The notes beneath the pieces were generated by a model that did not search any database, was not told the origin of the DNA, and saw nothing but the letters and a program-made list of their open reading frames with translations. DNA of 13,012 nucleotides, from IMG/VR virus record IMGVR_UViG_2667527633_000002, one strand, 5' to 3'. How positions within the stretch are numbered: the first letter of the stretch is position 1; the number at the start of each line of letters is the position of its first letter. The position numbers and the translations under genes are program-made. Source of the DNA: a virus. Lineage: Duplodnaviria; Heunggongvirae; Uroviricota; Caudoviricetes. This document shows, one piece after another, positions 4,751 through 10,898 of this stretch.

Positions 4751-4808
4751 AAAAAGGGCGGCAGAGCAGTCACGGAGTAAAACTGATACCGCCAAACGTC
4801 ACCAGAAA
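4751..4808 (-). ncRNA. dicF: DicF small regulatory RNA (ftsZ-targeting), including terminator U-tract
   Basis: The minus-strand sequence TTTCTGGTGACGTTTGGCGGTATCAGTTTTACTCCGTGACTGCTCTGCCGCCCTTTTT matches the DicF sequence as I recall it. GGCGG and CCGCC arms followed by a T5 run form the terminator. Lies between ydfC and dicB as in the dicB operon. Confidence 0.75.
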
Positions 4809-9376: not shown

Positions 9377-9446
9377 TTAAATTTAGCTCTGTTAAAAATT
9401 TAATCCTTAACCGGAGGGATTTCTGCACCCTCAGAACATCAGGAGG

Positions 9447-9462
9447 CCGCCCGAAAGGGCGG
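9447..9462 (+). promoter_or_regulatory. Perfect 6-bp stem with GAAA tetraloop between an AGGAGG Shine-Dalgarno and the ATG at 9470
   Basis: CCGCCC-GAAA-GGGCGG. AGGAGG is at 9441-9446. No U-tract follows, so it is not a classic intrinsic terminator. Confidence 0.4.
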
Positions 9463-9469
9463 TAGTTAA

Positions 9470-9652
9470 ATGCGAAAGTTTAAAATAATTATTGAAACGG
9501 GAATAGCCGGTGGAGATTTCGAGGATGAATTCGAAGTGGATGATGATGCGACGCCTGATGAAATACATGACGAAGCAAAAGATATTTTCTTTAACTACTG
9601 CAATTACTCATATCACGAAATAAAAGACGAAGAGGAAGAACAAAATGGCTGA
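9470..9652 (+). CDS. Small highly acidic protein (60 aa)
   Basis: MRKFKIIIETGIAGGDFEDEFEVDDDATPDEIHDEAKDIFFNYCNYSYHEIKDEEEEQNG: about 20 D/E against 5 K/R. Confidence 0.5.
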   Translation: MRKFKIIIETGIAGGDFEDEFEVDDDATPDEIHDEAKDIFFNYCNYSYHEIKDEEEEQNG

Positions 9653-9821
9653 TTTTGGTTCAACTAAATACAACGTCAGTTTTGAAGAATGGCATGAACT
9701 GTTAATGGACTATGCAGAGTTACGTGGTGGCAGTGCTGCTGATGCTGAAGCATGGCGTGATGATTATGAAGCAGGAAAAACTCCGGTCGAAGCATATTGT
9801 GATGAGTGGGGCGATGAATGA
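9645..9821 (+). CDS. Small acidic protein (58 aa), not in the supplied ORF track
   Basis: Hand translation gives MADFGSTKYNVSFEEWHELLMDYAELRGGSAADAEAWRDDYEAGKTPVEAYCDEWGDE. The ATG overlaps the previous gene's end (ATGGCTGA), with a GAGGA Shine-Dalgarno 9 nt upstream. Its stop overlaps the next start (ATGA). Confidence 0.45.
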   Translation: MADFGSTKYNVSFEEWHELLMDYAELRGGSAADAEAWRDDYEAGKTPVEAYCDEWGDE

Positions 9822-10134
9822 GCGAGGTTAATTATCAGGAAGGGCATGAAACGGCGGGGCAAGCAAAAACAGTGGCATGGCGATATCGCTACGTGAAAAA
9901 AAAGGCGTTACGGACTTTCAGGGGAAGTAGTGGTCTGGTGACTGGAAATATGTACCGAAAAAAGAGGATTGTAACGACAGGCCGAACTATGAAATTCAGG
10001 CCTTATTCACTGCCCCGCCAGTCCCGGTTACATCAGAAGAACTGGTTAAAGCTGTGCACTTTTATGAACAACTAAAACGCGAAAATCCACCAGCATCCGG
10101 AAACCTGATTACAGATTCCCAGATAAGGCAATGA
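9818..10134 (+). CDS. Hypothetical gene that changes frame at an A_AAA_AAG heptamer (candidate programmed -1 frameshift, pseudogene or homopolymer error)
   Basis: The ATG-initiated frame (9818-10075) turns arginine-rich and unprotein-like after about codon 49. The -1 frame is open from 9931 to 10134, is protein-like (EDCNDRPNYEIQALFTAPPVPVTSEELVKAVHFYEQLKRENPPASGNLITDSQIRQ) and has no start codon of its own. The slippery heptamer A_AAA_AAG sits at 9958-9964 in the zero frame. Confidence 0.4.
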
Positions 10135-10535: not shown

Positions 10536-10742
10536 CGGTTTGCGGGGAAATCTTAGTTAAGTAGAATGACTGCGGGTGCTTGAGGCTATCTGTCTCAGGC
10601 ATGAACACCAAAAGGCAGATAGAGAAAAGCCCCAGTTAACATTACGCGTCCTGCAAGACGCTTAACATTAATCTGAGGCCATATCTATGCGACACATAGA
10701 GATTAGCCTCTTACGGACCGAAAGGTCAAGGAGAAGCAGGCT

Positions 10743-10898
10743 ATGAAGCAGCAAAAGGCGATGTTAATCGCCCTGATCGTCATCTGTTTAACCGTCATAG
10801 TGACGGCACTGGTAACGAGGAAAGACCTCTGCGAGGTACGAATCCGAACCGGCCAGACGGAGGTCGCTGTCTTCACAGCTTACGAACCTGAGGAGTAA
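10743..10898 (+). CDS. hokD: Hok-family type I toxin (HokD/RelF-like, 51 aa)
   Basis: MKQQKAMLIALIVICLTVIVTALVTRKDLCEVRIRTGQTEVAVFTAYEPEE matches HokD as I recall it. Below the ORF-track cut-off. AAGGAGAAG lies upstream. Confidence 0.85.
   Translation: MKQQKAMLIALIVICLTVIVTALVTRKDLCEVRIRTGQTEVAVFTAYEPEE

Follow-up and report, generated by a model that had tools for sequence, protein, structure and literature searches.

A widespread gene for a 58-residue acidic protein of family PHROG 519 in the early-right operon of a lambdoid Escherichia coli prophage

The protein family PHROG 519 comprises 261 sequences (PMC9409062). The 58-aa protein analyzed here belongs to this family; it has the same size and the same acidity, differs in no respect, and is matched over its full length by the PHROG 519 HMM with the E-value 4.5e-23 (83 bits, residues 1-58 on positions 76-137 of the 143 in the profile). 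The same profile was also matched by 108 of 114 diverse relatives. The protein is identical to RefSeq WP_000753060.1, the "hypothetical protein" that PGAP annotates on the identical sequence, and it is 94.8% identical to gp14 of the phage ArgO145 (YP_009907879.1), which is likewise a "hypothetical protein". ArgO145 is a functional Stx-type phage, and gp14 has the same flanks as the gene studied here: a DUF7167 homolog upstream and an ead/Ea22-like gene downstream. In ArgO145, this module lies in the early-left (ea) region and the gene downstream of gp14 is intact, whereas the module studied here belongs to the nin-like region of the early-right side and has a pseudogene in the downstream place. 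Gene calls in public collections include the exact 58-aa protein on at least 1000 contigs, and it sits in a 491-member cluster. The first-pass annotation of this DNA, made from the letters alone, had expected that automated calling would tend to drop such a short ORF; instead, the gene is already known, being listed as a hypothetical protein in RefSeq, in GenBank phage records, and in PHROGs, and has not been overlooked. A literature search under its accession numbers returned no match, and a literature match to phrog_5197 is a false match for phrog_519.

The window, that is, the whole stretch of 13,012 nucleotides that was analyzed (IMG/VR record IMGVR_UViG_2667527633_000002), is a Rac/Qin-like lambdoid E. 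coli prophage. Its region 9400-10200 matches many E. coli chromosomes at 100% identity; EC958 and MS6198 are among the E. coli strains with the identical sequence. The window encodes an integrase, an excisionase, a large exonuclease, an S24 repressor, a P22-type Cro, and YdaT, and further a replication gene, DUF977, hok/sok, and DUF968. Based on the prophage gene order, the 58-aa gene is placed in the early-right operon, where it comes after the replication genes and within a nin-like run of packed small genes. No terminator or promoter consensus was found on the plus strand in a scan around the gene, and an Rfam search of the region around the ORF gave no match. Among 5426 complete E. coli genomes, 2105 (39%) carry the DNA of the ORF, and by identity band roughly 1500 are estimated to have the prophage copy intact. 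In nearly all of the matches listed, a "hypothetical protein" is annotated beneath the E. coli match.

The ORF starts with ATG, has 58 codons, and terminates with TGA at 9819-9821, as indicated by both the ORF listing and the reading of the sequence; its translation is MADFGSTKYNVSFEEWHELLMDYAELRGGSAADAEAWRDDYEAGKTPVEAYCDEWGDE. The coordinates of this ORF and of the surrounding features are summarized in Table 1. Much of this arrangement had been described in the first-pass annotation, and the description is accurate. The 58-codon ORF is present exactly where it had been placed, its start lies within the final codons of the 60-aa DUF7167 gene, its TGA shares letters with the ATG at 9818-9820 of the following frame, and a GAGGA precedes its start. 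The product, of 6.6 kDa, was also correctly described as acidic: 16 of its 58 residues are Asp or Glu (28%), the net charge is -12.4, and the pI is about 4.05. The ORF had been said to be absent from the ORF track through its shortness, and this is the case because 58 aa falls below the 60-aa length threshold of the track. The GAGGA is kept in E. coli prophage copies, but the same letters code for the upstream protein, and the constraint on that protein confounds the conservation of the motif.

Table 1. Coordinates of the 58-aa gene, its flanking features, and other features of the window.
Feature	Coordinates	Strand	Basis or remark
DicF sRNA	4756-4807	-	Known feature of Qin/Rac-like prophages
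DUF7167 gene (PF23768, E 7.9e-15; phrog_1997), 60 aa	9470..9652	+	Stop TGA 9650-9652
GAGGA Shine-Dalgarno-like motif	9632..9636	+	8 nt 5' of the ATG, within acidic C-terminal codons of the DUF7167 gene
Gene for 58-aa acidic protein, predicted three-helix (PHROG 519)	9645..9821	+	RefSeq-identical, family match, dN/dS, AlphaFold2
8-nt overlap ATGGCTGA, DUF7167 stop / 58-aa gene start	9645..9652	+	Sequence reading
ATGA stop/start overlap with downstream frame	9818..9821	+	Junction ATGAATGAGC kept in 82 loci
Pseudogene, disabled copy of 171-aa gene	9818..10134	+	A6 -> A8 frameshift 9896-9903; TAG 9928-9930 in ancestral frame
hok/sok type I toxin-antitoxin	sok RNA 10574-10745; hok ORF 10743-10898		Known Qin/Rac-like prophage feature

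The length of the ORF alone is no evidence of a gene because shuffled sequence yields about 33 such ORFs per window (33 ± 5 ORFs of at least 58 aa in mononucleotide shuffles; the window itself contains 57). It is the comparative data that raise this ORF above chance. The dN/dS ratio was calculated by NG86 in all six frames for pairs with intact homologs from an IncI2 plasmid, another E. coli element, and Serratia. Against the IncI2 plasmid copy, which shows 86% nucleotide identity, the differences at the first, second, and third codon positions are 1/4/19, and dN/dS is 0.09. The corresponding values are 2/2/13 and 0.05 for the other E. coli element, and 8/8/29 and 0.11 for the Serratia copy. 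The frame of the ORF is the sole frame open in both members of each compared pair, and the other five contain stops. Of these, the antisense frame sharing the third codon position has a ratio of 0.11-0.12; the ratios in the rest range from 0.40 to more than 6, and one is undefined (dS = 0). The substitution pattern indicates that the 58-aa ORF is a real protein-coding gene under frame-specific purifying selection.

A decayed allele of the ORF was also recognized. This allele, with about 89% nucleotide identity, in which the ATG is replaced by GTG, W16 by R, and codon 37 by a stop, was seen in Shigella flexneri (locus L009, 3001-3174) and in E. coli (L094, 1500-1673; L095; L096). The decayed block as a whole (in L094, the DUF7167 gene, the ORF, and the downstream gene) is present by identity band in several hundred E. 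coli genomes, with 540 records at identities of at least 95%. In L094, both neighbors are pseudogenes, each with an internal stop; L095 has a pseudogene downstream and no annotated DUF7167 gene upstream; in L096, the ORF itself is truncated by an IS element. Where both neighbors are still present (L094), they are broken as well, and the pattern is one of decay of a whole cryptic prophage region. The finding that the first-pass annotation had named as contrary to its proposal, a frame interrupted by stops between conserved neighbors, was searched for and did not appear among these loci.

Conservation of the overlaps in related prophages had been suggested as a check on the ORF. The 8-nt upstream overlap is retained in 82 of 101 loci, and so is the ATGA in 82 of 101, in a sample dominated by near-identical E. 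coli prophages. The same 8-nt overlap is observed with unrelated upstream genes, namely DUF1187 in IncI2 plasmids, a 140-aa ORF in a Klebsiella plasmid, and gpA in P2-like prophages, and this recurrence fits coupling as a property of the 5' end of the gene. Judging from the overlap and the GAGGA, translation of the 58-aa gene is probably coupled to that of the DUF7167 gene.

The DUF7167 protein is very acidic too, with a net charge of -15 over 60 aa, and the two consecutive mini-proteins both have a pI near 4. Upstream of the DUF7167 gene, the stretch 9441-9470 contains a stable GC-rich hairpin (stem 9446-9452/9457-9463, GAAA loop, -16.7 kcal/mol, z -3.4). It separates an AGGAGG at 9441-9446 from the DUF7167 ATG at 9470, with a linear spacing of 23 nt. 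Such a distance exceeds what a Shine-Dalgarno sequence can span, unless the two are drawn together by the hairpin; shortening of the Shine-Dalgarno spacing by a hairpin has a precedent in gene 38 of the phage T4.

The frame that begins in the ATGA overlap is an 85-aa ORF (9818..10075), which is the frameshift product of a 171-aa gene. The run of A at 9896-9903 has eight residues in the window versus six in 34 intact copies, and PGAP notes "frameshifted; internal stop" on the identical sequence. Intact 171-aa relatives (L026, L020, and others) begin with MSEINYQEGHETAGQAKPVAWRYRYVKK[D/G]VTDFQGK. The same frameshifted form is present in 36 of the loci retrieved, and the A8 form is either a lesion that has become fixed and is widespread or a variant in the length of the homopolymer. 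In other prophages, the same slot is occupied by ead/Ea22-like genes, which are mosaic, encode 119-239 aa, and have the same first codons. The 58-aa ORF had been described as overlapping the next gene; the ATGA overlap is real, while this next gene is a pseudogene here, carrying both the A8 run and the TAG.

The structure of the 58-aa protein was predicted with AlphaFold2 from a 48-sequence alignment (mean pLDDT 89, pTM 0.72), with helices at residues 13-27, 34-42, and 47-55. The prediction is confident that the protein folds as three helices. The conserved positions are T7, F13, W16, L20, A24, D33, W37, Y41, G44, and W55, and the family consensus is GGSAADA-AWR-DY-AGKTP--AW-DEWG. The conserved residues are mostly aromatic or hydrophobic, which fits the core of a fold rather than a defined binding surface.

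The 58-aa protein has no match in Pfam or NCBIfam at E ≤ 1, and 48 of its relatives have no consistent match in Pfam. The PDB sequence search with two profiles returned chance matches only (ProRS, SecA, and OpuA, E ≥ 0.067). Foldseek found no fold match in PDB (best E-value 5.7) and only uncharacterized viral or phage proteins in BFVD, so the protein shows no likeness to a solved anti-defense protein or DNA mimic. Taken together, the Pfam, NCBIfam, and PDB sequence and fold searches provide no link to any function by homology. A helix-turn-helix reading of the motif G-[GV]-S-x-A-D-x-x-A-W-R, which resembles one by eye, was considered and rejected; the homeodomain matches in Foldseek are insignificant (E-value about 6, TM about 0.3), and the net charge of -12 speaks against DNA binding.

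The family is very widespread. An exhaustive HMMER search revealed 193 clusters (50% identity) at E ≤ 1e-3, nearly all of them stand-alone proteins of 48-75 aa, and homologs were counted in 198 phage records and 554 plasmids. Conjugative plasmids account for 516 of the 554, and most are IncI2 plasmids, whose copies show 88% identity; IncI2 plasmids are a class of roughly 60 kb that often carries mcr-1. Homologs with about 55-60% identity are encoded by the virulent Ackermannviridae Det7 (gp16), 0507-KN2-1, Ag3, and PhiSH19, members of a family used in phage therapy. The identity is 57% for the Lastavirus ZX1 and 45% for the KP34-like phage phiKDA1. Homologs were found as well in prophages: Mu-like in Aquitalea, P2-like in Morganella and Salmonella, P22-like, and lambdoid in Pectobacterium. 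The genome-wide locus scan covers 4 species-representative loci, and the IMG/VR scan consists of 80 almost identical copies, which are informative on flanks and not on divergence. Acidity is a family trait: the net charge averages -8.2 over 147 stand-alone representatives, with values of -5 or lower in 85% and of 0 or higher in only 3%.

The genomic slots of the homologs are diverse. In IncI2 plasmids, the homolog is flanked by a DUF1187 gene and an SPFH gene, and in the pL operons of P22-like phages it sits between N and cIII. In the KP34-like phage, it lies between the DNA polymerase and exonuclease genes, a slot which we take to be analogous to that of the T7 5.x genes. In P2-like prophages (L106/L107, 5001-5189; L100, 6001-6162), it is located immediately 3' of the replication gene A (gpA), which it overlaps by 8 nt in Salmonella, at the edge of the variable hotspot between A and portal (A-Q). 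The hotspot of L107 carries an nSTAND1/AAA_16 (Avs-like) gene. In Pectobacterium lambdoids, the homolog follows lambda-P-like or DnaT genes, and in a Klebsiella plasmid it is part of a long array in which small genes of no known function all run in one direction. This early array also holds a Tad2-like/Sequestin gene, and a homolog is found beside a weak Acb2/Tad1-hairpin match (E-value 8.8e-4, below the Pfam cut-off). A role as a type II antitoxin was rejected, as the family is not constantly paired with a toxin gene; a ParE-like gene precedes the homolog in L093 only, and elsewhere DUF7167, DUF1187, gpA, or other genes are found upstream.

A few longer proteins contain the same domain. It forms the C-terminal part of P0204, which belongs to the Mu GemA family, and of P0250, a 374-aa protein that looks ParB-like by eye and has no Pfam match. 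These fusions may be artefacts of assembly or gene calling; each is a single cluster representative, and they are too thin to build on. Most of the longer family matches are without any Pfam domain, and an apparent LysM fusion (P0196) is a false positive. In a P1-like plasmid of 99.6 kb (L097, 1422-1574), the family motif is reduced to its 21 C-terminal residues inside an annotated ORF of 50 aa, which lies 5' of a DNA methyltransferase gene and looks like a chimeric or truncated remnant.

The preferred reading is tentative, and its chance falls a little short of even: a real early accessory gene, probably coupled to its neighbor, whose acidic product would bind and inhibit or modulate a host factor, possibly a defense protein. 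A host-binding inhibitor is the best guess because the product is a small stable acidic domain, spreads horizontally, occupies early or accessory slots, and occasionally has anti-defense-like neighbors; the argument from genomic context carries little weight, since unrelated small genes abound in regions of this kind. The 58-aa gene, probably translated in coupling with the DUF7167 gene before it, encodes a stand-alone acidic protein of PHROG 519 with three predicted helices. In the proposed mechanism, this protein would act early after induction, infection, or transfer, and it would bind a host protein and inhibit or modulate it. The most likely specific version would be a role in anti-defense or host takeover. 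A broader proposal, judged possible but less likely than not, is that PHROG 519 as a whole serves counter-defense or host takeover. Its members, this prophage copy among them, would then be very small acidic inhibitors of three helices that pass between temperate phages, virulent phages, and conjugative plasmids of Proteobacteria; the candidate targets would be components of restriction, RecBCD-like, CRISPR, or signaling-based defense.

The contrary reading, in which there is no gene and the frame is open by accident, in random sequence or in a non-coding element, could draw on the frequency of such lengths in shuffled sequence and on the lack of a Pfam family. It is set against the low dN/dS (0.05-0.11) and the surplus of third-position changes in this frame, the conservation of the protein in unrelated virulent phages and a betaproteobacterial prophage, the confident AlphaFold2 model, and the region's lack of an Rfam match; it is highly improbable, and the comparative data effectively refute it. 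The main rival to the host inhibitor accepts the gene and assigns its product to the element itself, as an adaptor, a chaperone, or a regulator of neighboring gene products, replication, or recombination. The probable tight coupling to the neighbors by overlaps of 8 nt and 4 nt would suit such a role, as would the frequent position right after replication genes (gpA; lambda-P-like or DnaT genes; DUF977 and replication genes here) and the rare C-terminal fusions to GemA and to the putative ParB-like protein. Yet these fusions are single representatives and possible artefacts, and the neighbors are wholly different between elements (DUF7167, DUF1187, gpA, a capsid-region gene, N/cIII), which leaves no partner gene common to all these neighborhoods. 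A role within the element is judged possible, on the unlikely side.

A DNA-mimic anti-restriction or anti-CRISPR protein, comparable to Ocr, ArdA, T7 gp5.9, or Acr proteins, would account for the content of 28% Asp and Glu, the net charge of -12, and the acidity kept across the family. The spread over phages and conjugative plasmids resembles that of anti-restriction genes, and the KP34-like position is compatible with the same interpretation. AcrHub/PaCRISPR predicted Kuttervirus homologs of phrog_519 to be anti-CRISPR proteins, in silico only (PMC9409062), which is the sole link to a function found in the literature, but PaCRISPR is a machine-learning score that favors any small acidic protein. 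Neither the PDB profiles nor Foldseek detected sequence or fold similarity to a solved mimic or Acr, and DNA mimics are generally larger than a monomer of 58 aa. An Aca-like regulator is not a regular neighbor, either: the window, IncI2, Det7, and P2-like contexts have no adjacent helix-turn-helix gene, and a small DNA-binding gene follows the homolog in phage ZX1 only. DNA mimicry is considered quite improbable, and inhibition or modulation of a host protein is retained as the preferred function.

The finding itself is minor since an ORF of fewer than 60 aa is expected to be absent from a length-thresholded track. The useful remainder is a very widespread family of mini-proteins whose fold is predicted with confidence, which is under strong purifying selection, and whose acidity is conserved. 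A family so widespread, with neither a Pfam family nor an assigned function, is thus a reasonable low-cost candidate for anti-defense and host-takeover screens.

Among the known systems, Ocr, ArdA, T7 gp5.9, and the anti-CRISPR proteins resemble the 58-aa protein in being small and strongly negative, in their early or accessory position, and in their distribution over phages and conjugative plasmids. No sequence or structural similarity to it was detected in any solved example, and the likeness is a functional analogy only. The nin genes of lambda and the ea genes of P22 are similar in setting: they too are small genes of mosaic origin that overlap and are tightly packed into the early operon of a lambdoid phage, with an ead/Ea22-like neighbor. 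No homology to a named nin or ea gene was found in the libraries searched, and unlike that comparison set, the family of the 58-aa protein also occurs well outside lambdoid phages.
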